64,000 nt of DNA, taken from positions 28,643 through 92,642 of the IMG/VR virus record IMGVR_UViG_3300044846_004348. The stretch is one strand, 5' to 3'. The first letter of the stretch is position 1; each line of letters starts with the position of its first letter. This document shows, piece by piece, positions 37,742-50,757 of this stretch. Under the pieces are notes generated by a model. The model saw only the letters and a program-made list of their open reading frames with translations, ran no database searches and was not told the origin of the DNA. Made by a program: the position numbers and the translations under genes. The DNA comes from a virus.

Positions 37742-39556
37742 CTATCTTTTAAAACTTCGTACATTACGCCTTACTTTTCTATACTTTCTAGTTTTTTTAA
37801 TTCTTTTTTTCGGTTTAGACCTTTCACTACCAGCAGGAATTTCTCCTCCGCCTCCAGAACCGCCTGAACCGCCTGAACCGCCTGAAGCTCCTGAAGAACC
37901 AGATCCTCCTGTAGAAGCAGCTGCAATAGATGCTGCAGCAGCAATCTGTGTCACAACTACTGAGGCAACAACTACCGTTTGCGCTTCTTCTCTTTCTTCA
38001 GTGTTCATATCCGCACCCACTTGACCTAATGCTTCTAGTACTTGACCTGCGTCAGAAGAAAACGCAGCGGCTAGAGCTGACAAATCTGACAGTTGTTCAA
38101 ATACGAGTGCTATACCTGCTTCTAAATTAACGCCTTCTCGGTATTCAATAATTTGATCTGGATCTAACTGCTCTAAAAACTCTAAAGTTTGCTCATCAGT
38201 TAATCCTTCAAGTAAATCTGCTACTGGCATTGTTTCGTCTACTTCATAATTTTCAATCAATAATGCTGCAATATCTTCTAACTGCTCGTCCGTAATCTCT
38301 TCTTCAGTACCTAATAATTCTTCAATTGCATTATCAATCTCTTCTTCAACTAATATAATTTCTTCTATTGGCGTTGGTTCTAGCGTAGGCTCTATGGATG
38401 GTGATTCACTTTGGATAGGTTCAGGTATTGGCGTTGGCTCTGGGTCCAGAGTTGGTTCAACGCTTTCGACTGGTTCAGGGCTAAGACTTGGCACAGGTTC
38501 TGAGGTTGGCTCTGAAGTCGGTGTAGGTGTAGGCGTAGAAGTTGGAGTTGGAGTTGGAGTTGGAGTAGGTAAAGTTGGTATAAATAATTCAACTATATTT
38601 GAATCACTAGAATATACAGACAGAGTATTATTATCTGATCTAATCTTAAATTGATAGTTTTTTCCTAATCCTCCAGTTGTTGAGAATACTTCTGGTGATA
38701 AGTACGAATTTGTTTCTTGTGAACTTATGCCCCAACCATCCGATACAAAGTTTGTTGTAGACCAACTAATTGCATAACTTTCAACTGCTGTCCCACTACT
38801 AACTGGTGCATTCCAAAGTAACTCTACATTTCCTGCAGATAATAATGTTGCGGTTAAGTTTTGTGGTGGATTTAGTGAAGGCGTAGGAGTTGGAGTAGGC
38901 GTAGGTGTAGGAGTTGGAGTAGGTGTAGGAGTTGGAGTAGGGCTTGCTACAGGAGGTTCAGTAATAGTTTGAACAGTTAATGGTTGGATAGGCCCATTTT
39001 GAATGTATCTTGCACCATACCTAGCATTTGCTGGTGCACTAGAACTTACTTCATAGGTTGGTTGCCATGTGTAATTTATTGGATTTACTTCTGCCAACAT
39101 TCTTATGTAGACAGGGTTTCCTGATGATTGACCCCATGGTAATACTTTCCAATCTACGCATATAGAAGTTGCTGTAGAGCCATATCTAACATATAAATTA
39201 TTTCCGTATCCCCATCCAGGACTCCATACTCCAGGAGTTTCTTGATTTGGAAAAGCGTGATAATCAAAGGACGCTATAGAAATAGAGGGAGTTGGTGGGT
39301 AATCCCAGAATGTATAGTCTCCTTGACCAAAAGTTATTGTTCCTTTTGGACTTACATAAATATTGTTTGTATAAACCGTTCCACCCCATTCAAGAGGTGT
39401 ATTTAGATTCATTAAAAACGCTTGATCGCCACCGTTAACTTGATGAGTATCGCAGGGCGCGGCAGTAGATCCAGAGCTTTTATTACTATCTAAAAACACT
39501 AAAAAGCCAAGTGTTAATGTAAATACAAGAAAAGCTCTAACTAAACTCTTAATCAA
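37742..39556 (-). CDS. secreted, membrane-anchored protein with FN3 domain and PT linkers
   Basis: Signal peptide, globular domain, (PT)n, PPQNLTA...LLWNAP...YQFKIRS FN3, (PT)n, acidic region, TM, basic tail. Confidence 0.75.
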   Translation of the reverse strand: MIKSLVRAFLVFTLTLGFLVFLDSNKSSGSTAAPCDTHQVNGGDQAFLMNLNTPLEWGGTVYTNNIYVSPKGTITFGQGDYTFWDYPPTPSISIASFDYHAFPNQETPGVWSPGWGYGNNLYVRYGSTATSICVDWKVLPWGQSSGNPVYIRMLAEVNPINYTWQPTYEVSSSAPANARYGARYIQNGPIQPLTVQTITEPPVASPTPTPTPTPTPTPTPTPTPTPSLNPPQNLTATLLSAGNVELLWNAPVSSGTAVESYAISWSTTNFVSDGWGISSQETNSYLSPEVFSTTGGLGKNYQFKIRSDNNTLSVYSSDSNIVELFIPTLPTPTPTPTPTSTPTPTPTSEPTSEPVPSLSPEPVESVEPTLDPEPTPIPEPIQSESPSIEPTLEPTPIEEIILVEEEIDNAIEELLGTEEEITDEQLEDIAALLIENYEVDETMPVADLLEGLTDEQTLEFLEQLDPDQIIEYREGVNLEAGIALVFEQLSDLSALAAAFSSDAGQVLEALGQVGADMNTEEREEAQTVVVASVVVTQIAAAASIAAASTGGSGSSGASGGSGGSGGSGGGGEIPAGSERSKPKKRIKKTRKYRKVRRNVRSFKR

Positions 39557-39622
39557 ATAAAACTCCAGCGAGTGTGTCCAATACTCTCTATATCTATTTT
39601 ACATGTTAAAAGAGTTAACTAC

Positions 39623-40309
39623 TTACTCCAAAGATTTTTTATACGACAAATACACATGTCTAACTGTTGATGCATGCCATTTACTGTCTTTTTTAACTGT
39701 TGGAATATTTTCTTTGTTTAACATTTCTGCAATCCGTCCAAAAGATAAACCTTTTAATCTGTGCTCGTAAATTCTTATTCTCACATCATCTGTAAGTATT
39801 GGTTTAGGACCTAAATCAATACCCCACTTTTTATTGTTATCTCTTCTATCTTGATGGACATCTCTTTGACGAAGTGAAATCATTCCTCGTTCCATCTCTG
39901 CCATTGCAGACATAATGGTTACAACGAAGCGACCTTGATAGGTAGCAGTATCTAAACCTAAGTCGAGCATGGCTAAACGCCAGTTGTATTTATGAGATCT
40001 ATCAACAATGCTTAAAAAGTCTCTAGTTGATCTAGCCAACCTATCCAAACGAGTGACATAGAGAGCATTGGCTTTACCTTCATCTAAATCCTCTAAAGCC
40101 TGTCTTAGAACTGGTCTACCTTGAATGCTTTTACCTGAGCGACCTTCTTCCCTAAGCATTACTACTGTGTAGCCAGCGGCTTCTGCAGCAGCTTTAAGTT
40201 GCTTTTCTTGGGCATCAAGACTTACTCCGTCTTCAACTTGCATTTGAGTTGAGACTCTTGCATAGCAATATGCAACACCTGGTAAAACTGTTTTTAATAC
40301 TTCAGTCAT
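39623..40309 (-). CDS. serine recombinase (resolvase/invertase-like)
   Basis: YARVST catalytic Ser, SGK...RP, RLDRLAR, MAEMER; short C-terminal DNA-binding domain. Confidence 0.92.
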   Translation of the reverse strand: MTEVLKTVLPGVAYCYARVSTQMQVEDGVSLDAQEKQLKAAAEAAGYTVVMLREEGRSGKSIQGRPVLRQALEDLDEGKANALYVTRLDRLARSTRDFLSIVDRSHKYNWRLAMLDLGLDTATYQGRFVVTIMSAMAEMERGMISLRQRDVHQDRRDNNKKWGIDLGPKPILTDDVRIRIYEHRLKGLSFGRIAEMLNKENIPTVKKDSKWHASTVRHVYLSYKKSLE

Positions 40310-40445
40310 TTGTCGCTCCTATTTGACTAAAGTATACACACTTAACCTGAAAATACATACACACTTAGACTTAAATATGTATGGAATATGTACAAGAACA
40401 TGTACAAGATTTGTAGCTAGCCTGTGGATAACTTTTAAAAACGCT

Positions 40446-40515
40446 ATTTTTCGGCCTCTCGCTCCGTTATGAAAGGAAGCGGGAGAGTGGGGAAAAAATG
40501 TGTGTGTTTGGGTTT
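40446..40515. repeat. dispersed element copy 1 (core GGCCTCTSGCTCC at 40453-40465)
   Basis: T-run, core, purine/G-rich tract, GTGTGTTT tail; first 25 bp identical to copy 4. Confidence 0.85.
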
Positions 40516-40519
40516 ATCT

Positions 40520-40795
40520 TTATTTTCTACATTCTTTACATATGGTGCCCCACTCATTTGCTGAGTCAGCATCAACCATTTGATTTGGTGGTGAAACCAT
40601 TAAATCGTGATAGTTAGTGTCCCAAGTGGATGAATCGTTTTTGTCATCTTCTTCATAATCATCCCAAACGGCTGTGTACATATCTGCATACGGAGAAAAC
40701 TTTCTTGCCAACCAACCAGACGCATCCATAGCTCTATTTGAGATCCAGCGAACAACTGAACCTTTGTCTACTTCTACTTGCTTTACAAAATCCAC
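40520..40795 (-). CDS. hypothetical protein
   Basis: AAGGAG SD before GTG; sole gene between repeat copies 1 and 2. Confidence 0.65.
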   Translation of the reverse strand: MDFVKQVEVDKGSVVRWISNRAMDASGWLARKFSPYADMYTAVWDDYEEDDKNDSSTWDTNYHDLMVSPPNQMVDADSANEWGTICKECRK

Positions 40796-40820
40796 ACCAA
40801 CACTCCTTCCTTAAAACCTA

Positions 40821-40900
40821 ATTTTTCGGCCTCTCGCTCCAACATAATAATAGGGCAAAAAAGCAAGGAAGGGAAGGAAGGTTGTGTTTTGGTGTGTTTT
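40821..40900. repeat. dispersed element copy 2 (core 40828-40840)
   Basis: ATTTTTCGGCCTCTCGCTCC, purine tract, GTTGTGTTTTGGTGTGTTTT. Confidence 0.85.
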
Positions 40901-40902
40901 GG

Positions 40903-41289
40903 CTATAGTTTCTTTGCTTTGATCTGTCTTCCATCTAGAACAATAGGACCTTTACTGTCATGCCAAATCCAAAAACCGATTGGCATAGATGGATCAGAAT
41001 TAAACGTGTGTGACCAATGTAGATGATAGTTTTTTCCATCCCAGCCGCCGATGTTCTTATCATCGTGACCAGTTTCATCTAGTTTGTCAGTACCTGGGTA
41101 GCGACCAAATCTTCCTCTAAGAACTTTTCCACCAACGCCAAATTCTATTCTTAGAACAGTTGTCCATTGCCATACACCAGCGCTGTCTACCTTGTACGAG
41201 ATACCTTTAGGGTACTCAACCCAAGTCCAAACTTTAGGTGGAACTGATTGCTTAGACTTACCACTTTCTACTTTCCATAAATTTGACAC
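40903..41289 (-). CDS. hypothetical Trp-rich beta protein (paralog of 42742..43227)
   Basis: AAGGAG SD; shared motifs WK, WT, RF/IxR, TG, RQxK. Confidence 0.65.
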   Translation of the reverse strand: MSNLWKVESGKSKQSVPPKVWTWVEYPKGISYKVDSAGVWQWTTVLRIEFGVGGKVLRGRFGRYPGTDKLDETGHDDKNIGGWDGKNYHLHWSHTFNSDPSMPIGFWIWHDSKGPIVLDGRQIKAKKL

Positions 41290-41357
41290 TGTTATTACTC
41301 CTTAAAACCCTGCACTAGTTGTGTAAAACAATTATTACACAAACAAAGCAACCTCAT

Positions 41358-41507
41358 TTACTTCAATGAATTTTGGTATCCTCCACAGATAAGGCACATG
41401 CCGTAATCTGAAAACTTATGCCCGCTTGGAAGGCAGCCGTTTGGTAGCGCGTCTTCTCCAGCACTAAACCACTCTTTAATCTTTTTTACTATATCTTTAC
41501 TTTTCAT
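41358..41507 (-). CDS. 49-aa hypothetical protein (C/H/CxxC)
   Basis: Likely start at MKSKDIV overlapping the upstream stop; GCLPSGH...CLIC. Confidence 0.5.
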   Translation of the reverse strand: MKSKDIVKKIKEWFSAGEDALPNGCLPSGHKFSDYGMCLICGGYQNSLK

Positions 41508-41877
41508 AGTTACGTAAAATCTCGTTATTTTCTTCAACTGTGTGGTCAAGGTATTCTTTGTAAGTACCAAACTTTTTGTCGTTTTCTTCTCTACCCTCAC
41601 GGATAATCTCTGCAATATCTTCTGGAGCCAAGTTAGGTCTATGCATTTCGCCAAAACTACTAGTTCTCTTGTTGTACCTATCCATCATGGATTTAATGGC
41701 TTTTTGGTCGTACTTCTCTGATTCTTCTAAAAAGAAATTAACCACTTCTTCAGTGTTTAAATAATCTATATCTATTCTCTGTCCAAAGCGTTTAACAAAA
41801 CTCTTGTGTAAACTCTTTGCCTTCGGGGTTTCTAACATGATTCTCCTTGCCTCTGCAGGTTTATACAGGTTTCGCAA
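41497..41877 (-). CDS. hypothetical protein
   Basis: Charged helical ORF; true start may be the ATG after AGGAG (MLETPK). Confidence 0.6.
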   Translation of the reverse strand: MRNLYKPAEARRIMLETPKAKSLHKSFVKRFGQRIDIDYLNTEEVVNFFLEESEKYDQKAIKSMMDRYNKRTSSFGEMHRPNLAPEDIAEIIREGREENDKKFGTYKEYLDHTVEENNEILRNYEK

Positions 41878-42329
41878 AGACTACCGTGAATAAGAACAGA
41901 ACCGATATTAGCAAAATACTCATGAAAGATACTTATCCCCCTCTTCTTACATGAATCACACTCGTCTGAGTTGTATTCGGCAGAGGCTTTTTCTAAAGCT
42001 TGTACACAATCAGAGCAACCAAGAAAATCAGACTGCCCTACAAAAACACACCAAACTGTAGGATTATCAAAATCTACATGTGGGCAAAACTCTAACTTAT
42101 CGAACTCTTGTCTATCAATCATCCACCTTAACTTTTTAAGCACAGGTGTACTCATATAAGTATTTACATCAAAACTTTTAACTCTTACTTCTGCTGGCTG
42201 ATGAGGAATATTTACAGATGCTTTATGGAAAATATCTCTTGCTTGTTCCGTGGCTGCTTCAAGTTGCTCTTCCATTCGAGACATGCGAAGACGCTCTATG
42301 GCTTCATCTTCTTCATTATCCATGAGCAA
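41832..42329 (-). CDS. hypothetical Cys-rich (Zn-binding) protein
   Basis: CPH, CSDC, CDSC, CETC. Confidence 0.65.
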   Translation of the reverse strand: MLMDNEEDEAIERLRMSRMEEQLEAATEQARDIFHKASVNIPHQPAEVRVKSFDVNTYMSTPVLKKLRWMIDRQEFDKLEFCPHVDFDNPTVWCVFVGQSDFLGCSDCVQALEKASAEYNSDECDSCKKRGISIFHEYFANIGSVLIHGSLCETCINLQRQGESC

Positions 42330-42357
42330 CCTTTTTCTATATAATAAAAAACTTTAC

Positions 42358-42430
42358 TTTTTTGGCCTCTGGCTCCGATTAAAGAGTAGGGGGAATACGG
42401 ACGGGGGAGGGTTGTGTGTTTTGGGGGTAG
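42358..42430. repeat. dispersed element copy 3 (core 42364-42376)
   Basis: TTTTTTGGCCTCTGGCTCC, G-rich tract, GTTGTGTGTTTT; tail is read through by the 3' end of 42379..42651. Confidence 0.82.
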
Positions 42431-42651
42431 TTTTCTGTGTCGTCTTTCCAAAGTTCATCGTAAATGTTTTCTGGGAGTCTGTCCCCTCTACTCTCATGAA
42501 CTTTTAAATGATCCACCATCTCTTGAGTTGAGTTAGCGTTAAAAGATACAGAGTCCATCTCTCCTAAACCACAAGCCATACACACAAGTCGATTTGTTCC
42601 AGCATGCATAAAAACGTAAGCATCAGACTCAATGAATCTTGAGTAAGCCAT
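42379..42651 (-). CDS. hypothetical protein (CxxC...H..H)
   Basis: GGGAG SD; SDAYVF...CMAC...MVDHLKVH. Confidence 0.65.
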   Translation of the reverse strand: MAYSRFIESDAYVFMHAGTNRLVCMACGLGEMDSVSFNANSTQEMVDHLKVHESRGDRLPENIYDELWKDDTENYPQNTQPSPVRIPPTL

Positions 42652-42671
42652 TTGTCTCCCTAGTTTAAAGT

Positions 42672-42724
42672 GTTACCTACCGTGAGAATATTTATTTTAA
42701 ATTTATTTATCCACGGCAGGTAAC
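42672..42724 (-). terminator. stem-loop downstream of 42742..43227
   Basis: GTTACCTACCGTG ... CACGGCAGGTAAC inverted repeat (one G-U on minus strand) around an AT-rich loop. Confidence 0.55.
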
Positions 42725-42741
42725 TATTACTATCATACAAC

Positions 42742-43227
42742 TTACTCTGGAAATGTTAAAAAACTATCGTCTAATGGCGAGTTGGGGTTCCAAGACTTAA
42801 ACTGCCTTAAAGAAGATTTAACGGTTTTTGGGCCGCCTCCGTACTTAACCTGTGCAACTACTGGGTAATCAGGGTTAATCGCCCAGCAGGTGGCTCCTTG
42901 CCACTTCTTAGGACTGTTTTTACCTAGGACCCAGGTGTTAGTGCCAGTAGTGTTTAGCTTTCCAGATGGTAGAACTCTGGCTATGCGAACTTTAACCCAC
43001 TTTGGCTTACTTTTGCCAAAAGTTAAATGAACTTGAGTACAGTAAAGACTTCTAGTACCAAATGGTTTCATTTGGCTTTTTCCATCAAACTTTAATGTTG
43101 TCCACTTATTTCGAGGAATTTCTTGAGCAGTTGTAGATTTCCAAACATTAGTGTTTTTTGCAACCACTGGGTTTGTAGAAGAAAATAAGAATAATAATAT
43201 AAACGCAATAAAAACCTTTTTTAACAT
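42742..43227 (-). CDS. secreted hypothetical protein
   Basis: Signal peptide; TACACT 6 nt before ATG; similar to 40903..41289. Confidence 0.7.
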   Translation of the reverse strand: MLKKVFIAFILLFLFSSTNPVVAKNTNVWKSTTAQEIPRNKWTTLKFDGKSQMKPFGTRSLYCTQVHLTFGKSKPKWVKVRIARVLPSGKLNTTGTNTWVLGKNSPKKWQGATCWAINPDYPVVAQVKYGGGPKTVKSSLRQFKSWNPNSPLDDSFLTFPE

Positions 43228-43454
43228 AAAACAAGTGTAAGTGTTAACATTTTTAGAACAATTTAATAATTTGATTACTTTTATTAATAATTTGTGGATT
43301 AAATAAAGTAATTCCTTGAATATAAACAGAATTAGTTGTGGAACTTTGATTTGTGGAAAACTTAAAAAACTAACTAAAATCTAAATAAAATTGTAGATTT
43401 TGACATTAGATAAGTTATAATTAAAGCAACTCCCATAAGGAGGTTTTTTTATTT

Positions 43455-43904
43455 ATGGGTCCTTTATTAAGTACGTTTATATCCGCTACGTTTATTGCAA
43501 CTAGTATTCTACCTACTGAAAAACCAGTTCCTATTATTAATAGCGTTCAAATTCTAGCTACTGCAGACAAATACATTGGAGTTCCATATTGTAGGGGCGG
43601 TAGTAGAGGTAAATGTTTTGATTGCTCTGGTTTTACTTCCTTTGTTTATGGAAAGTATGGAGTTGATTTATCAAGGAGTGCGAGTCAACAATATAGAAAT
43701 GCAGTAATAATTTCTAAAGAAACAGCCGTTCCTGGTGACCTAGTTTTCTTTAAAAATAAAAGCGGTTATGTTTATCATGTCGGGATCTATATAGGAAACG
43801 ACAAAATTATCCACGCTCCAAGATATGGAAAAAGGGTTCGCGTAGAAACTATATGGGGTCAGAGAGTTGAGTTTGCAAAAGTTGCTTATGTGACTGCAAC
43901 CTAA
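43455..43904 (+). CDS. NlpC/P60 (C40) cell-wall peptidase
   Basis: GVPY..GG, FDCSGFT, PGDLVFF, HVGIY, IHA; AGGAGG SD. Confidence 0.93.
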   Translation: MGPLLSTFISATFIATSILPTEKPVPIINSVQILATADKYIGVPYCRGGSRGKCFDCSGFTSFVYGKYGVDLSRSASQQYRNAVIISKETAVPGDLVFFKNKSGYVYHVGIYIGNDKIIHAPRYGKRVRVETIWGQRVEFAKVAYVTAT

Positions 43905-43910
43905 AACTAA

Positions 43911-43980
43911 ATTTTTCGGCCTCTCGCTCCGTTATAAAAAGCGGAGGACGATTGGGGTAGGGTTGTGTGTTTTTTGGTTT
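43911..43980. repeat. dispersed element copy 4 (core 43918-43930)
   Basis: ATTTTTCGGCCTCTCGCTCCGTTAT identical to copy 1; CTCCG/CGGAG hairpin; GTTGTGTGTTTT tail. Confidence 0.85.
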
Positions 43981-43981
43981 T

Positions 43982-44671
43982 TTAGTAGCTAGTGCTGTAG
44001 TCCTCAGACCACAAAGTAGTTTTCCTGCTCTCCCAGTTATCTAAGTCTTTAGGGTAGTCAAAATCCTCAGTCCAATCATTTATCTCCACAAAACCACCAT
44101 TCTTAAATAACTCTTGCCTAGAGCGAGCATTGCCTAGAGTCATATCTTTAAATAGATGCCAACCCCCAGCACTTAGTATTTCAGAGACCGAAACATAAAG
44201 CATAAAAATCTTGTGACTAAAAGTAACTGACATGCTGCTACTAAAAGAAATAGCAAAAATCTCTTTATGAGGCTTTCCAGTAATAATGGAACCCTTACGG
44301 CGAAGAAAAAACTTCCACTCATCTTTATCAGAAACTATTGTTCTAACTGCATCGTCAGTAAAATAGACATCTCCAAAAACTAAAATGTTTTTAGAGTTTT
44401 TCTTGTCTAACCATAAATCATGCGAAGAGATAAACTTAGACATTTCTTTAGGGCTGTCATCAATCTCAGGGGTATAAAGATTTGCCCCGTCAAACTTATA
44501 TCGGTCATCTGGACCTACAACCCAAACATCAGAAGTGTGTTTAAGAAACTGTTTAACGGTTCTTGCTAAAAGAACTTCTCCCTCTATCTCAACTAAATGT
44601 TTAGGCACGCCTCTATAGTTGCCCCACCTTGAACCGCTACCGCCAGCAAGAATTATTACTCTAAGTTCCAT
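43982..44671 (-). CDS. nucleotidyltransferase (NTP_transferase, LicC-like)
   Basis: IILAGGSGSRW...PKHL, FGDVYF, EDFDYPKD. Confidence 0.82.
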   Translation of the reverse strand: MELRVIILAGGSGSRWGNYRGVPKHLVEIEGEVLLARTVKQFLKHTSDVWVVGPDDRYKFDGANLYTPEIDDSPKEMSKFISSHDLWLDKKNSKNILVFGDVYFTDDAVRTIVSDKDEWKFFLRRKGSIITGKPHKEIFAISFSSSMSVTFSHKIFMLYVSVSEILSAGGWHLFKDMTLGNARSRQELFKNGGFVEINDWTEDFDYPKDLDNWESRKTTLWSEDYSTSY

Positions 44672-44712
44672 TAATTAAGTTTATCAGGGGTTATAGTGTA
44701 AGAGTGCCTGAT

Positions 44713-44741
44713 TTGACTTGCAGGCTTATTACCGTTATAAT
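44713..44741 (+). promoter_or_regulatory. sigma-A/70-type promoter
   Basis: TTGACT-17-TATAAT upstream of 44772 with GGAG/AGGA SD. Confidence 0.7.
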
Positions 44742-44771
44742 AAACTATAGCTGGAGATATTTAGGACACGT

Positions 44772-45056
44772 ATGGCAAAGAAAAAAATAGAAATAAAGAT
44801 TCCTGAGCACTGGGTCGTAGAAGAATCAATTCAGGTCAACAATCAAACAGTTGTGCCAGGAACTGAGATATCTGTAAAAGGTGAAAGAGGAAGATTTAAA
44901 TTCCTTAAAAAAGTAACCACCCCAAACACCTCTTGGGTAGATTGCATTGGTGGAAGAAAAGGTTACGAGGTATACAGATCATTTGAGACATCTAAAATAA
45001 AAACCGTTCATCGCAAAAAAACAACACGACCAACTAGAAACAAAAACGCTATATAA
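44772..45056 (+). CDS. conserved actinophage hypothetical protein (SH3-like)
   Basis: PGTEISVKGERGRFKF...WVDCIGG...RSF. Confidence 0.65.
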   Translation: MAKKKIEIKIPEHWVVEESIQVNNQTVVPGTEISVKGERGRFKFLKKVTTPNTSWVDCIGGRKGYEVYRSFETSKIKTVHRKKTTRPTRNKNAI

Positions 45057-45070
45057 TAAAAACTTAAAAC

Positions 45071-45155
45071 TTCTGGCCTCTGGCTCCAATAGAGATTAGG
45101 AGGAGGAGGCGGGAAAAAGGGGGAGGTTTGTGTTGGGGTGTGTTTTGTTTTGTTT
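45071..45155. repeat. dispersed element copy 5 (core 45075-45087)
   Basis: TTCTGGCCTCTGGCTCC, GGAGGAGGAGGCGGG tract (hairpin with core), GTGTGTTTT tail. Confidence 0.82.
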
Positions 45156-45164
45156 GATTCTAAC

Positions 45165-46397
45165 TTAAACTATATCTAGCCAAGAAATAGAACCAACAAC
45201 ATTTTGAGTTCCACCAAGCGAGCGCACAGCTAAAGTTAGTGTGTCACTTGTTGGAGTCGTTGCATTAGTTCTACCTAACTGAATGTCCCAGCGGAAAATA
45301 TCTCCCAAAGATACTGACCCAATTGATTGATTGGAAGAACTAAAAAATCCTTGCTCAACTATTGTTCCACCCGTTAAAACAGTCTGAGTAATATTATATT
45401 CAACATTACCTGTAGATTCTGTGTGAGGCACCCATGTACCACCAGTTAAGGTTGCATTTTTTATAAGAGCGTATTCATAATCTCCAGCAGATCTTCCAAG
45501 TATAGATATAGCATTAGGAACTATTACTGAGTCCGTTCTAGCAGAAGCTAAGCGAATAGAAACTATTGGGTAAAAGTCTCCAGCAACACCAACTTGTGTA
45601 GATCTAGATGCAGTCCAATGTTCTGTTTTTCTGGTATATCCTCCATTAGAAATAACAGTGGCGCATATCTGCTTCATTGTAGAAGAGCTTGAAGTTGCTC
45701 CAGTGTTCTCAACTTCATAACGTAAAGGTAGAGAGGCTGTTGTTATATAGACAGATGTAGTTTTGTTTGCATGATGAAAAGCATGAACTGGAATAAAATA
45801 ACCATCTATAGCAAAGCCGCAGCGTACTGAACCTACGCCAAGCCATTCATACTCTGTCCAAAAAATTTGAGCTTTAGATAGATCTAAAACTATGTCTGAA
45901 GGTCCATCTCCGTTAAGTTGGTCAATATTCCAATCACTTTGTGCAACTCTTGTATTGACTACTTCGCCACTGATATAACTACGCTTAACTAAATAAACGC
46001 TTGTACCATCCTGCTCTAAATAAATTCCGTTTTGTCTAGAAAAATAACCAACTCTTTGTCTCAAGTTTGCTTTAGGTGGAGCCATAACAAAAGTCTGCAT
46101 AACCTGCAAAGACTTGCCTGGTTGATATGGAAAAGTTTTAAAGGACTCAAGAGTTACCTTGTCACCTGAAGCACTGCCTATTGCTAAAGACAAAGAACTT
46201 TCATTTGTAAGATGAGAAACTGTTGCTGTGCCAGAAGTTTCTTTACTAAAATCTCCAGATTCTTTATATCTATGTGAAGAGTCAAATACAGTATAAGGTT
46301 CAGATGTTTTAATTCTTCCAAAAAGATCCGTACGAAAGCTAGAAAAACCTTGCTGAGGTACATTAGGAATCTTGCCTTCGTTATTATTATTTGTCAT
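45165..46397 (-). CDS. 410-aa putative virion protein (compact homolog of parts of the 826-aa and 2863-aa proteins)
   Basis: DLFGRIKTSEP, YQPGKS, LDLSKAQI..EWLGVG.VR.GF, LPLRYEV. Confidence 0.75.
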   Translation of the reverse strand: MTNNNNEGKIPNVPQQGFSSFRTDLFGRIKTSEPYTVFDSSHRYKESGDFSKETSGTATVSHLTNESSLSLAIGSASGDKVTLESFKTFPYQPGKSLQVMQTFVMAPPKANLRQRVGYFSRQNGIYLEQDGTSVYLVKRSYISGEVVNTRVAQSDWNIDQLNGDGPSDIVLDLSKAQIFWTEYEWLGVGSVRCGFAIDGYFIPVHAFHHANKTTSVYITTASLPLRYEVENTGATSSSSTMKQICATVISNGGYTRKTEHWTASRSTQVGVAGDFYPIVSIRLASARTDSVIVPNAISILGRSAGDYEYALIKNATLTGGTWVPHTESTGNVEYNITQTVLTGGTIVEQGFFSSSNQSIGSVSLGDIFRWDIQLGRTNATTPTSDTLTLAVRSLGGTQNVVGSISWLDIV

Positions 46398-46439
46398 AGT
46401 AGAATAAGTTTACAGGTTTTCTCTTTGATGTGTTTTATG

Positions 46440-46634
46440 TTAAAGACGTTCAGTTTCGTCAATGTATTCAAGGGCAATAAGTTTTAGTTTATCTTCGTGT
46501 TCTTTTGCGTGATGTCCACAAAAAACTAACGAACTTCCACTTAAAAGTTTTACTAAAACATAACCTTGTGACCCACAACGATCGCAACGATCAAAAGAAT
46601 TTAATAAAAACTCTTTAGCTAGTGCAGTGCTCAT
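46440..46634 (-). CDS. small actinobacterial Zn-binding protein (DUF7455-like)
   Basis: DRCDRCGSQGYV...LVFCGHH...DET. Confidence 0.75.
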   Translation of the reverse strand: MSTALAKEFLLNSFDRCDRCGSQGYVLVKLLSGSSLVFCGHHAKEHEDKLKLIALEYIDETERL

Positions 46635-47038
46635 TTTGAGGCTTTTGCTCTAAGGCTCTTTAGCAACTCAAAATCTTTAACTTTAGTTTCACCCATATAG
46701 CCCCAAGCATAGCCAGTAGCAATTAAAGCCTCGTTAACGGACTGCTCTGCACCATCAAGATAAAGCCAACCAAGTACGCGACCATACTTTTCAGTGGAGT
46801 CTGGTTTTTCAGTTTTAATAACAATTAAGTTTGCTTGGGATATCAAATCACCGAGTTTTTTCTTAACCTCTAGACCTAATTCTTTTTCTACTTTATCTTT
46901 AGTGCGAGATTCAGGTGTGTCAATACCAGCAAGTCTTACACGCTGAGAGTATGAAATGTTAAAGCCTAAATCAATTTCGACATCTATGGTGTCTCCATCA
47001 ACAATTTTAGTTACTTTTTTTATTCGATATGTATACAA
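46631..47038 (-). CDS. thermonuclease (SNase-like)
   Basis: VDGDTI, RVRLAGIDTPE, KYGRVLG, GYA. Confidence 0.9.
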   Translation of the reverse strand: MYTYRIKKVTKIVDGDTIDVEIDLGFNISYSQRVRLAGIDTPESRTKDKVEKELGLEVKKKLGDLISQANLIVIKTEKPDSTEKYGRVLGWLYLDGAEQSVNEALIATGYAWGYMGETKVKDFELLKSLRAKASK

Positions 47039-50148: not shown

Positions 50149-50757
50149 ATGATACAAAATGAAACGACGAAATTGGTTCCAAAATCAAGAGTGGGTAAGC
50201 CAAAGATGAATAATCAGGAGCTACCTCTAGAAGTCATAGAAAAATTACAATCTATAGACAAACGCACTCCTGTGGGCAAAGAGACTAGAAAAGCATATAT
50301 GAAAAAACTGCACTCTCTTAATTGGACTTTAACTGCTATAGCAAGAGGTGCTGGTCTATCTAGAGAAAGAGTTCGTCAACTTATTGAAGAAAATAAAAGT
50401 TATGACTTTTCATTAGTAGAAGACTTTCCTGCACCACGAGTTGATGTATGGGTTGCTAGTGCTAAAAAAGAGATAGTTCTTCCAGACGAAGAAATACTAA
50501 AAAGACTTTTAGAACTAAAAGCTTATGCTGCAAGAGTTAGAAGCCATAGTCCAAGGTATCGTGAAGAAGCCGAGGAATACACAAAACTTATTAACGAGTG
50601 CGTAGAAAACGGTGTAACTCTATACAGACTAAGTAAACTACTTGATGTTACTCATGGCGCATTATTGTTTAGATTAGTTAGATACGGTTATAAAGAAACT
50701 ACTGGAACTTCTAAATCTCTTACAAAAGTATTAGACAAAAACAGAAAGCAAGTTTAA
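50149..50757 (+). CDS. double-HTH DNA-binding protein (sigma region-4-like first HTH)
   Basis: WTLTAIARGAGLSRERVRQL and GVTLYRLSKLLDVTHGALLFRL. Confidence 0.72.
   Translation: MIQNETTKLVPKSRVGKPKMNNQELPLEVIEKLQSIDKRTPVGKETRKAYMKKLHSLNWTLTAIARGAGLSRERVRQLIEENKSYDFSLVEDFPAPRVDVWVASAKKEIVLPDEEILKRLLELKAYAARVRSHSPRYREEAEEYTKLINECVENGVTLYRLSKLLDVTHGALLFRLVRYGYKETTGTSKSLTKVLDKNRKQV

Follow-up and report, generated by a model that had tools for sequence, protein, structure and literature searches.

A series of short, unrelated genes lies next to a gene for a small serine recombinase in the window analysed here (64,000 nt of a 92,642-bp phage contig), and a GC-rich core recurs at their boundaries, all of which raises the question of whether these repeats are crossover sites served by the enzyme or signals of another kind. 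Five copies of the core GGCCTCTSGCTCC had been described, and the five were confirmed at 40453, 40828, 42364, 43918 and 45075, every one on the plus strand. The count did not change when two mismatches were allowed (5 against 0.66 expected, with 0 of 100 shuffles reaching 5). The core is indeed unique to 40.4-45.1 kb, as a scan of the whole contig gave no further copy, and a profile search of the contig with the whole module returned the same five and none besides.

The T-run, the core, the purine-rich tract and the GTGTGTTT tail were present in the five copies, and copies 1 and 4 share the 25 bp of ATTTTTCGGCCTCTCGCTCCGTTAT. These parts had been correctly described, but the length given for the repeat unit had not, because the real unit is longer, with TTTTTATTATATAG lying beyond the T-run (minus strand) in copies 3 and 5. 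Read on the minus strand, which is the direction of the local genes, the order of the module is a stop codon, a CA-box, a G-poor and C-rich tract, and TAAC-GGAGCSAGAGGCC-AAAAA-N5-TTTT. As previously noticed, a minus-strand ORF ends within a few nt of the beginning of each of the five copies, ORF 42379-42651 extends through the tract of copy 3, and copy 1 lies upstream of the recombinase start (40309), at 144 bp. The tracts contain 33-35% C and 5% G, a make-up shown by just 18 stretches of 50 nt in the contig, including all five tracts. From the window copies to the next start codon there are 28-140 nt, or no downstream gene is faced. The -10-like TATTATATAG box is present in copies 3 and 5, a convincing downstream -10 box plus a gene were found within the window for copy 3 only, and a consensus promoter scan reported none of the five window copies as a promoter. 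The features are collected in Table 1.

Table 1. Genes, gene blocks and module copies around the recombinase gene (positions in the window).
Feature	Position	Strand	Remarks
Small serine recombinase, 228 aa	39623..40309	-	Downstream end of the array
Two direct copies of ATGTACAAGA (with TGTACA)	40388..40409		Between copy 1 and the recombinase start
Module copy 1	40440..40519	-	Plus-strand core 40453-40465; starts at the stop of ORF 40520-40795; minus-strand layout CA-box, C-rich tract, TAAC-GGAGCGAGAGGCC-GAAAAA-TAGCG-TTTTT
Block 1, 91-aa ORF	40520..40795	-	No known family; no relative in related loci
Module copy 2	40815..40900	-	Core 40828-40840; no -10 box; directly followed by ribosome-binding site AAGGAAGGAG and GTG start of ORF 40520-40795
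Block 2	40903..42329	-	3-4 small ORFs: 128 aa; 98 and 126 aa (mutually overlapping); 165 aa; no Pfam family
Module copy 3	42337..42425	-	Core 42364-42376, CCAG variant; tract is the 3' end of ORF 42379-42651; downstream, -10-like TATTATATAG at 42337-42346, then AAAGG, then ATG 42323 of the next gene
Block 3	42379..43904		90-aa ORF; 161-aa putative secreted protein (as called in the preliminary description); plus-strand NlpC/P60 peptidase
Module copy 4	43904..43980	-	Core 43918-43930; between convergent NTP-transferase (-) and NlpC/P60 (+)
Block 4	43982..45056		MobA-like NTP-transferase, 229 aa (-); DUF7246 gene (+)
Module copy 5	45050..45146	-	Core 45075-45087, CCAG variant; TTTTTATTATATAG box as in copy 3; convergent junction of virion protein gene (-) and DUF7246 gene (+)
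Conserved virion structural protein, phrog_1645	45165..46397	-	Upstream anchor of the variable region

Pfam searches confirmed the genes that had been named (recombinase, NlpC/P60 and NTP-transferase). The 128-aa ORF of block 2 has relatives within the arrays of L184 and L185, and the 90-aa ORF of block 3 in 32 related loci, with cores flanking several of these. The DUF7246 gene has its own promoter (TTGACT-N17-TATAAT, 44713-44741). The virion structural protein is 94% identical in the closest relative, whose array differs.

About 130 non-redundant copies of the module were found in related 130-160 kb freshwater phages, with 3-9 per genome, co-oriented with the genes and in one region, in such a way that in five complete genomes all the cores fall inside a single region of 5-20 kb. 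In L154 the array is inverted and the neighbouring genes are also oppositely transcribed, keeping the co-orientation with the local genes. The core is intergenic and asymmetric across the family, with a consensus of about 20 nt (TAAC-GGAnnGnGAGsssG-AAAAA), and cores of one genome are identical at 0.85 and cores of different genomes at 0.73, against 0.3-0.46 for the flanks. As conservation is limited to these 20 nt or so, it speaks for a recognition sequence under selection rather than for a recent duplication. The core sequence is phage-specific and partly genome-specific, and it is not a host motif: 596 Gb of prokaryote genomes gave 39 matches versus roughly 35 by chance, according to a hand estimate from the degeneracy of the pattern. 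The hosts are uncultured freshwater Actinomycetia, the source phage coming from a lake. Between a quarter and a third of the family copies have no C-rich tract, and such copies lie inside compact operons.

The proposal that the copies delimit cassettes was supported, because the breaks between close relatives fall exactly at cores. Gene content changes in sister phages precisely at homologous cores, with core-to-core deletions of 422 bp and 3.8 kb (overlaps of 19-36 nt) and also core-bounded replacements. Both ends were at cores in 14 of 91 indel or replacement events, and one end in 10 more. Breakpoints were located inside modules in 58 of 153 cases, versus 27% of gene junctions bearing a core (p = 0.0013); breakpoints away from cores were common in the arrays, making up most of the 153. 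No rearranged form was seen in four lake metagenomes, nor was there cassette variation in the window's own population. The comparisons between relatives support the module copies as real boundaries of gene blocks.

The recombinase has a catalytic domain and, C-terminally, a short helix-turn-helix of 'Recombinase' type, with Pfam matches to Resolvase (E 1.9e-35) and Recombinase (E 2.8e-6), is assigned by PHROGs to integrase/DNA invertase, has 3guv and the N-domain of TP901-1 integrase as closest solved chains, and counts 87 relatives in IMG/VR. If the cores were its crossover sites, the locus would be an integron-like platform that excises, inserts and reorders blocks, which we consider unlikely. 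The core-to-core deletions and replacements would be expected of such a platform, but the exchange points can be resolved only to 13-15 identical nt, so that homology-driven exchange fits as well, and the majority of array breakpoints are off the cores. The array is located upstream of the recombinase gene and co-oriented with it in every informative genome (at 0.14-3.5 kb, including contigs found through the core alone), whereas homologues in L178 (74% identity), L198, L199 and phage DSL-LC01 have no upstream array; moreover, the arrays all belong to a single syntenic lineage of phages, and the co-occurrence is therefore not independent evidence. The cores are phage-specific and partly genome-specific, as sites of a dedicated enzyme could be, yet phages with different core types have an unchanged WYASTVRH segment in the C-terminal domain of the enzyme. 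The cores are also kept at convergent junctions, where roles in expression are weak, but no module exists at the 3' end of the recombinase gene itself or at a tRNA gene.

Regarding symmetry, hix and gix sites have A/T tracts around their centre, and the A5-N5-T4 next to the core may be seen as resembling them. Crossover sites of serine recombinases (res site I, hix/gix, att) are made of two inverted half-sites around a central dinucleotide, whereas the module lacks this arrangement: its best inverted-repeat score was 5.58 matches against 5.54 in shuffled controls, and only the A-run and the T-run are symmetric. The likeness to integrons lies in the co-oriented repeats that bound small unrelated accessory genes beside a site-specific recombinase gene, and in the cassette-type gain and loss exactly at the repeats in sister phages. 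However, integron IntI is a tyrosine recombinase and not a serine one, attC sites are imperfect palindromes that conserve their folded structure and not their sequence, while the module has no such palindrome and conserves sequence instead, and the recombinase is at the downstream end of the array, co-oriented with it, the blocks having their own promoters. Of the integron-like array first proposed, the bounded gene blocks stand, but symmetry, homologues, the C-terminal tail and the four lake metagenomes provide no evidence linking the enzyme to the sites, and the contexts of the core described below are of an expression type.

It could also be that the modules are transcript 3'-end signals only, either through Rho loading on the C-rich and CA-rich tract of the minus-strand RNA or as hairpin terminators or 3'-processing elements, with a core that has no reader, an explanation that we find markedly unlikely. 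The position of every window copy directly after a stop codon, the rarity of such C-rich tracts in the contig and the convergent junctions at copies 4 and 5, suitable for bidirectional use, are in line with it. Pairing of the core with the tract was reproduced for copies 1, 4 and 5 (in copy 1, -25.7 kcal/mol on the plus strand and -15.0 kcal/mol on the minus strand, z about -2.5), whereas for copies 2 and 3 the folding was not better than in shuffled sequences. A conserved hairpin is not a feature of the family, given that it appears in three of the five window copies and that core and tract do not co-vary across the family: tract plus core folds slightly better than with shuffled tracts (mean z -0.86, p = 1e-7), and the duplex energy is the same with the own core as with swapped cores (-13.4 versus -13.2 kcal/mol, p = 0.77). 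Intrinsic terminators were considered and are not supported, since the minus-strand hairpin is followed by GAAAAA and not by a U-run, and a consensus scan reported none of the five copies. A terminator needs no identical core, yet what the family conserves is the core sequence, not the pairing. In addition, a ribosome-binding site comes immediately after copy 2, with no promoter, and transcription must therefore read through that copy, and the copies without a tract are also at odds with a 3'-end role.

The position of the core relative to genes in the family suggests roles in expression. A start codon was found at +17 to +22 in 34 of 127 copies, against 6.7% of random positions, with a sharp peak at +18/+19 (31 copies), and in these start-adjacent copies the core, 6 nt before the start, provides the Shine-Dalgarno (GGAG or GGGAG about 9 nt upstream). 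Among 85 other copies, 20 are followed by TANNNT-N6-ATG/GTG, a -10 box of leaderless type, against 2.6% at random, and the box starts at +31 to +34 or at +41 to +43, two classes that are one helical turn apart. A tRNA-Met gene lies 42 nt downstream of a core in L120.

These contexts resemble those of the start-associated sequences (SAS), with their ESAS, in Cluster K mycobacteriophages (Pope et al. 2011, PMC3203893; Adephagia study, PMC11373665). Both the core and SAS are asymmetric, GC-rich, of 13-bp scale, with GGAG and in a single orientation; both are limited to the non-structural part of actinophage genomes and absent from host genomes, conserved beyond the needs of ribosome binding, and adjoin SigA-type promoters, and the start spacing of SAS (3-9 nt) is found in a quarter of the family copies. 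However, the window core GGAGCGAGAGGCC agrees with the SAS consensus GGGATAGGAGCCC at 7 of 13 positions and the best variant in relatives, GGAACGGGAGCCC, at 10 of 13, both exceeding the two deviations that SAS admit. None of the five window copies is start-adjacent, while SAS lie 3-9 bp upstream of a start, with a Shine-Dalgarno; the promoter is downstream of the core here, while ESAS are upstream of SAS in Cluster K; and there are 3-9 copies, against 11-19 SAS. Furthermore, the core varies between genomes and carries an attached C-rich tract, and these 130-160 kb phages have no detectable relationship to Cluster K.

An action at the RNA level, as an extended ribosome-binding sequence or one that controls translation, has been proposed for SAS. 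The same action of the core, with the start-distant window copies being relics of recombination, is quite unlikely in our opinion. The 31 copies at +18/+19, the GGAG or GAGG within the core and the 10-of-13 variant with SAS-like start spacing agree with this, but most copies, including all five in the window, are start-distant or gene-less and their core is still 0.91 pairwise identical. Genes after start-distant copies either carry a ribosome-binding site of their own or are leaderless, and one copy precedes a tRNA gene.

The stoperators of L5 and Cluster A phages are asymmetric 13-bp gp71 sites, present in two to three dozen copies genome-wide, that serve the known immunity repressor of a temperate phage. 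Their contrast with SAS has been stated (PMC3203893). The cores are likewise asymmetric 13-bp sites in short intergenic gaps or start/stop overlaps, in one orientation relative to transcription, with one position overlapping the promoter -35 region and a sequence specific to the phage group. The stoperator-like alternative of the preliminary description fits this anatomy better than the integron-like one, but in complete genomes the sites occupy a single region of 5-20 kb and are not genome-wide, and neither a repressor nor an integrase-type lysogeny module was found.

Another parallel is offered by the promoter-early stem-loop (PeSL) cassettes described in T4-like phages (Arbiol et al. 2010, PMC2839356; Comeau et al. 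2014, PMC4122927). Like the modules, PeSL are composite motifs of intergenic gaps that begin at the stop codon of the preceding gene and join complementary poly-C/poly-G stretches to a promoter, a putative one in the modules. Both are concentrated in a hyperplastic region of small accessory genes, and in both the insertions, deletions and replacements that separate close relatives have their breakpoints at the motifs. What defines PeSL, however, is a consensus sigma-70 promoter together with a stable hairpin that acts as a terminator, and they number about 50 per genome, whereas here a separate 20-nt core is conserved, the hairpin is weak or absent and the copies are few.

Our best explanation, on balance probable, is that the module is a gene-boundary, operator-like expression signal that doubles as portable homology for gene shuffling. 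It would lie where one expression unit ends and ahead of the promoter or ribosome-binding site that serves the following unit, in the same orientation as transcription throughout, and in the window's clade the upstream unit would end in the G-poor, C-rich tract right after the stop codon. The core of about 20 nt, judging from its conservation, would be the recognition site of a phage-specific factor, and this predicted factor would regulate expression. At local promoters the core would occupy about -44 to -28, or -54 to -38, and inside compact operons it would fill the stop-start gap and provide the Shine-Dalgarno, an action that by analogy may be closest to that of L5 operator/stoperator sites and Cluster K SAS. 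Because the same 13-20 nt are present at many boundaries, they would also constitute portable homology, as PeSL do in T4-like phages, and recombination between copies, in the same genome or in co-infecting relatives, would delete, insert or replace the intervening genes. These exchanges are probably driven by homology and not by the enzyme.

Some data speak against this explanation. A promoter-linked role is hard to reconcile with copies 4 and 5, which look onto the 3' ends of convergent genes; the 3-9 copies in one region are far below the numbers of stoperators or PeSL; and the constant neighbourhood of the recombinase is accounted for by synteny only. No regulator gene was identified in the contig (71% complete), where a sigma factor and a T7-type RNA polymerase are absent, and the sole helix-turn-helix candidate regulator is a sub-threshold match in ORF 50149-50757.

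The ATGTACAAGA pair that precedes the recombinase gene is a candidate operator or a candidate site of the recombinase itself. As a separate observation, pairs of TGTACA are also present ahead of the recombinase gene in DSL-LC01.

The contig to which the window belongs (92,642 bp, estimated completeness of 71%, the window being its right-hand 64 kb) encodes a terminase, tail fibres, a primase-helicase, a ribonucleotide reductase and tRNAs. When a 6-kb region was used as the query, the recombinase gene of the lake Actinomycetia phage DSL-LC01 was the only match in a deposited phage, and the stretch was present in 24 lake-water metagenome runs, with no RNA run among those listed. Therefore, the source of the window is a large freshwater actinobacterial phage.

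The boundary modules of this phage are built around a 13-bp GC-rich core (GGCCTCTSGCTCC), found at five sites in the window against 0.66 expected when two mismatches are permitted, in such a way that all five lie on the same strand (see Table). Neither a pattern scan nor the module profile detected a further core anywhere in the 92,642-bp contig. The T-run, core, purine tract and GT tail attributed to each copy in the preliminary description were all recovered, as were the 25 bp common to copies 1 and 4 and the location of each copy at the 3' end of a minus-strand ORF; the pairing between core and tract was obtained for copies 1, 4 and 5, which fold better than shuffled sequences, and failed for copies 2 and 3. 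Because most of the adjoining genes are on the minus strand, the module was read on that strand, where a stop codon is followed by a CA-box (CCAAAACACACAA), a C-rich tract of 30-45 nt almost devoid of G, a short AT-rich segment that ends with TAAC, GGAGCSAGAGGCC, GAAAAA, around 5 nt and TTTT, with copies 3 and 5 extending further with ATTATATAG. Rfam gave no family at the modules, either at the gathering threshold or at E <= 5. A plus-strand G-quadruplex was discarded, as four G-runs exist in copy 3 only, and so was a small hairpin between the 3' end of the core and the T-run, which differs between copies as judged by eye.

Coordinates of the modules and neighbouring features (window positions, unless a related IMG/VR locus is named)
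Feature	Position	Strand	Remarks
604-aa ORF	37742-39556		
Segment of high contig depth	38600-39500		inside the 604-aa ORF
Joints going back 46-67 nt	38875-38941		inside the 604-aa ORF
Serine recombinase	39623-40309	-	downstream end of the array
Two direct ATGTACAAGA repeats	40388-40409		12 bp apart, between copy 1 and recombinase start
Core of copy 1	40453	+	144 bp from recombinase start
Core of copy 2	40828	+	leads directly into ribosome-binding site
Overlapping ORFs, block 2	41358-41654 / 41497-41877	-	158-nt overlap, different frames
ATG after copy 3	42323	-	preceded by ribosome-binding site
-10 box after copy 3	42337-42346	-	plausible
Core of copy 3	42364	+	
Contig stop/restart, copy 3	42377/42393		two runs
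Core of copy 4	43918	+	faces convergent genes
Promoter of DUF7246 gene	44713-44741	+	TTGACT-N17-TATAAT
Contig stop/restart, copy 5	45073/45083		two runs
Core of copy 5	45075	+	faces convergent genes
202-aa ORF	50149-50757	+	
Second module set, L154	17489, 18916	-	downstream of recombinase
Tract with partial core, L119	15471-15564		
ThyX gene, L119	19809-20525		

The closest relative shares with the window a virion protein (94% identical) and the recombinase (76% at the DNA level); in the relative, these two anchor genes are separated by 9.3 kb of unrelated DNA, which carries four modules of the same build and a different core (ACGGAAAGGGCGCCCGGAAAA). With a profile made from the nine copies of these two phages and the pattern ACGGANNGRRNGSSSGRAAA, the module was found in most of 80 recombinase-anchored IMG/VR loci, nearly all matches being on the recombinase strand and upstream of the recombinase. 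In five complete genomes of 133-160 kb, all the 3-9 copies lie within a single region of 5-20 kb adjoining the recombinase, and the reversed-pattern control gave zero matches. Searching IMG/VR by the core alone led to the same phage lineage, with the recombinase just downstream in the three new contigs that permitted the test. Conservation is limited to around 20 nt, with core identities of 0.85 within and 0.73 between genomes and flanks at background level. Outside this lineage, 596 Gb of prokaryote genomes yielded 39 motif matches, a chance level with respect to the roughly 35 expected by a hand estimate from the degeneracy of the pattern. Other IMG/VR contigs gave only single chance matches to the window-type core, without a module, a 19-mer scan of JGI metagenome contigs gave 15 matches unrelated to the window, and literature searches with the motif strings returned unrelated matches only. 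In the complete 133-kb genome L154, a second, inverted module set stands beside oppositely transcribed genes, so that both arrays converge on the recombinase region.

The exchange of genes at the modules was followed in relatives whose flanks are at least 88% identical. Of the 91 unique events (indels or replacements), both ends were at cores in 14 and one end in 10. L122 differs from L124 and L126 by the presence or absence of a 422-bp gene, with an overlap of 19 nt that is the core itself, and 3.8 kb between two cores are absent in the comparison of L145 with L152, with a 23-nt overlap; in three further pairs (L125 and L130, L164 and L185, L158 and L160), the same two cores enclose different genes. 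In array regions, 58 of 153 breakpoints fell in a module, compared with the 27% of gene junctions that carry one (p = 0.0013). In addition, the 90-aa ORF, NTP-transferase, NlpC/P60 and DUF7246 genes of the window blocks recur in other arrays at different positions and orientations. Thus, on an evolutionary timescale the blocks act as cassettes. The integron-like array proposed in the preliminary description is supported in part, for its cassette boundaries, with a putative role for the resolvase-type enzyme. The two events with the best resolution locate the crossover only to within 13-15 identical nt, which is consistent with homology-driven and site-specific exchange alike.

The 228-aa serine recombinase has a short C-terminal domain that matches the start of the Pfam 'Recombinase' domain. 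Recombination by this enzyme at the asymmetric cores is, in our opinion, unlikely. The recombinase neighbourhood of the arrays is unbroken in one lineage and cores persist where expression roles are weak, but the dyad symmetry of the module does not go beyond chance, many breakpoints lie away from modules, and recombinase homologues in L178, L198, L199 and DSL-LC01 have no array in the upstream 10 kb. Moreover, the WYASTVRH segment of the DNA-binding tail is identical across phages with differing cores, and the window arrangement is unchanged in the contigs of four lake metagenomes, which are collinear with positions 38000-47000 without a joint at any copy, one contig covering copies 2-4. The module profile gave no copy at the recombinase 3' end or at a tRNA end. 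Were the recombinase to act on the cores, the arrays would constitute a gene-capture system of a new kind, and the whole lineage of large freshwater actinophages would own a phage-borne, integron-like platform, made of a resolvase-type enzyme and sites doubling as expression signals, that captures and reshuffles accessory genes.

In two runs, contigs are interrupted exactly at copies 3 and 5, where they stop and resume at a depth of 3-7; low cover could be the cause, or else differences between strains at the modules. Each of the ATGTACAAGA repeats contains the palindrome TGTACA; pairs of it also precede the DSL-LC01 recombinase gene and a similar stretch exists in L135, the repeats being found only where there is an intergenic gap upstream of the recombinase (window, L135 and DSL-LC01). 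They may serve as an operator, or as a site of the recombinase itself. In many relatives, a ThyX-type thymidylate synthase (Pfam Thy1, E 3e-51) is encoded directly upstream of the recombinase, as in L119, and the window lacks it at that position; this upstream neighbour is itself variable.

The position of the cores with respect to the genes was also analyzed. Of 127 non-redundant copies, 34 have a start codon between +17 and +22 of the core, compared with 6.7% of random positions, and in 31 of these 34 it lies at exactly +18/+19. In such start-adjacent copies the TAA of TAAC is often the upstream stop codon, and the core constitutes the entire intergenic spacer and provides GGAG or GGGAG. In the remaining copies, those of the window's clade among them, AAAAA-N5-TTTT comes after the core and precedes a promoter-like sequence. 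TANNNT-N6-ATG/GTG, the layout of actinobacterial leaderless mRNAs, was detected in 20 of 85 of these (2.6% at random). The -10 box begins at +31 to +34 or +41 to +43, so that the core covers approximately -44 to -28 or -54 to -38. In some copies, a full TTGACN-N16-TANNNT promoter comes directly after the core, and one core is located 42 nt ahead of a tRNA-Met gene. The ECF-type promoter pattern GGAAC-N18-GTT fits all five window copies, but was dropped because its supposed spacer is the most conserved part; a T7-like promoter was rejected in view of the poor conservation found upstream of the core in start-adjacent copies. The T-run remains conserved even inside a coding region, and this is explained neither by a host-type ribosome-binding site alone nor by a terminator.

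The best explanation for these data, which we consider somewhat probable, is a boundary signal similar to SAS, stoperators or PeSL that doubles as portable homology. It would be an asymmetric site recognized by a factor specific to the phage, which would explain the conservation of the T-run, and would overlap promoters in one setting and fill inter-cistronic gaps in another, the same logic as in the operators and stoperators of mycobacteriophage L5. The likeness to the start-associated sequence (SAS) of Cluster K mycobacteriophages includes 10 of 13 matching positions between the core variant GGAACGGGAGCCC and GGGATAGGAGCCC (PMC3203893), and the same spacing and orientation bias in the start-adjacent cores.

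Regarding the factor, Sigma70_r2 and Sigma70_r4_2 were absent from the contig, and a search for T7-type RNA polymerase gave no match in it, nor in the control genomes, so that this search is uninformative. The 202-aa ORF in the Table matches Sigma70 region 4 below the threshold (E 0.0018, 18 bits for a cut-off of 24), belongs to no PHROG family and gives the sole indication, near the array, of a helix-turn-helix regulator.

The C-rich tract does not co-vary with the core of the same copy, the duplex energy being -13.4 kcal/mol for this pair and -13.2 after the cores were swapped (p = 0.77), and it contributes only modest folding (z -0.86). Therefore, we interpret it as a 3' region that is poor in G and lacks structure, which could load Rho; by consensus scan it is not an intrinsic terminator. 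In the GCCCGG-core clade (L119, L120, L134 and L137), several tracts contain a second, partial copy of the core 3' end (CCCCGGAAAATCT) around 40 nt upstream of the full core, which may be the scar of an older exchange.

Short conserved boundary sequences are known in two phage groups that have been studied well, as SAS (PMC3203893), whose function has been unknown since 2011, and as the promoter-early stem-loops (PeSL) of T4-like phages (PMC2839356, PMC4122927). As far as the searchable literature shows, the boundary signal is undescribed for the present lineage. The abundant uncultured lake phages are a third, apparently independent case. Its approximately 130 natural site variants in two contexts, with direct evidence of gene exchange there, make it testable which factor reads such sequences and whether phages keep standard linkers that allow accessory genes to be swapped without loss of expression.

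No other sequence in the 6-kb region matches the sigma-70 type as well as the near-consensus promoter before the plus-strand DUF7246 gene; therefore, the plus-strand genes of the array look like self-contained units inserted counter to the main direction of transcription. In block 2, gene calls are uncertain because the two ORFs overlap and neither has a known family. Finally, the 604-aa ORF, whose protein has no Pfam or PHROG family, includes a segment with a contig depth of 25-270 in four lake metagenomes, compared with 3-10 elsewhere, and the joints found inside this ORF go back on themselves; this segment looks like a variable-length repeat common to many phages.
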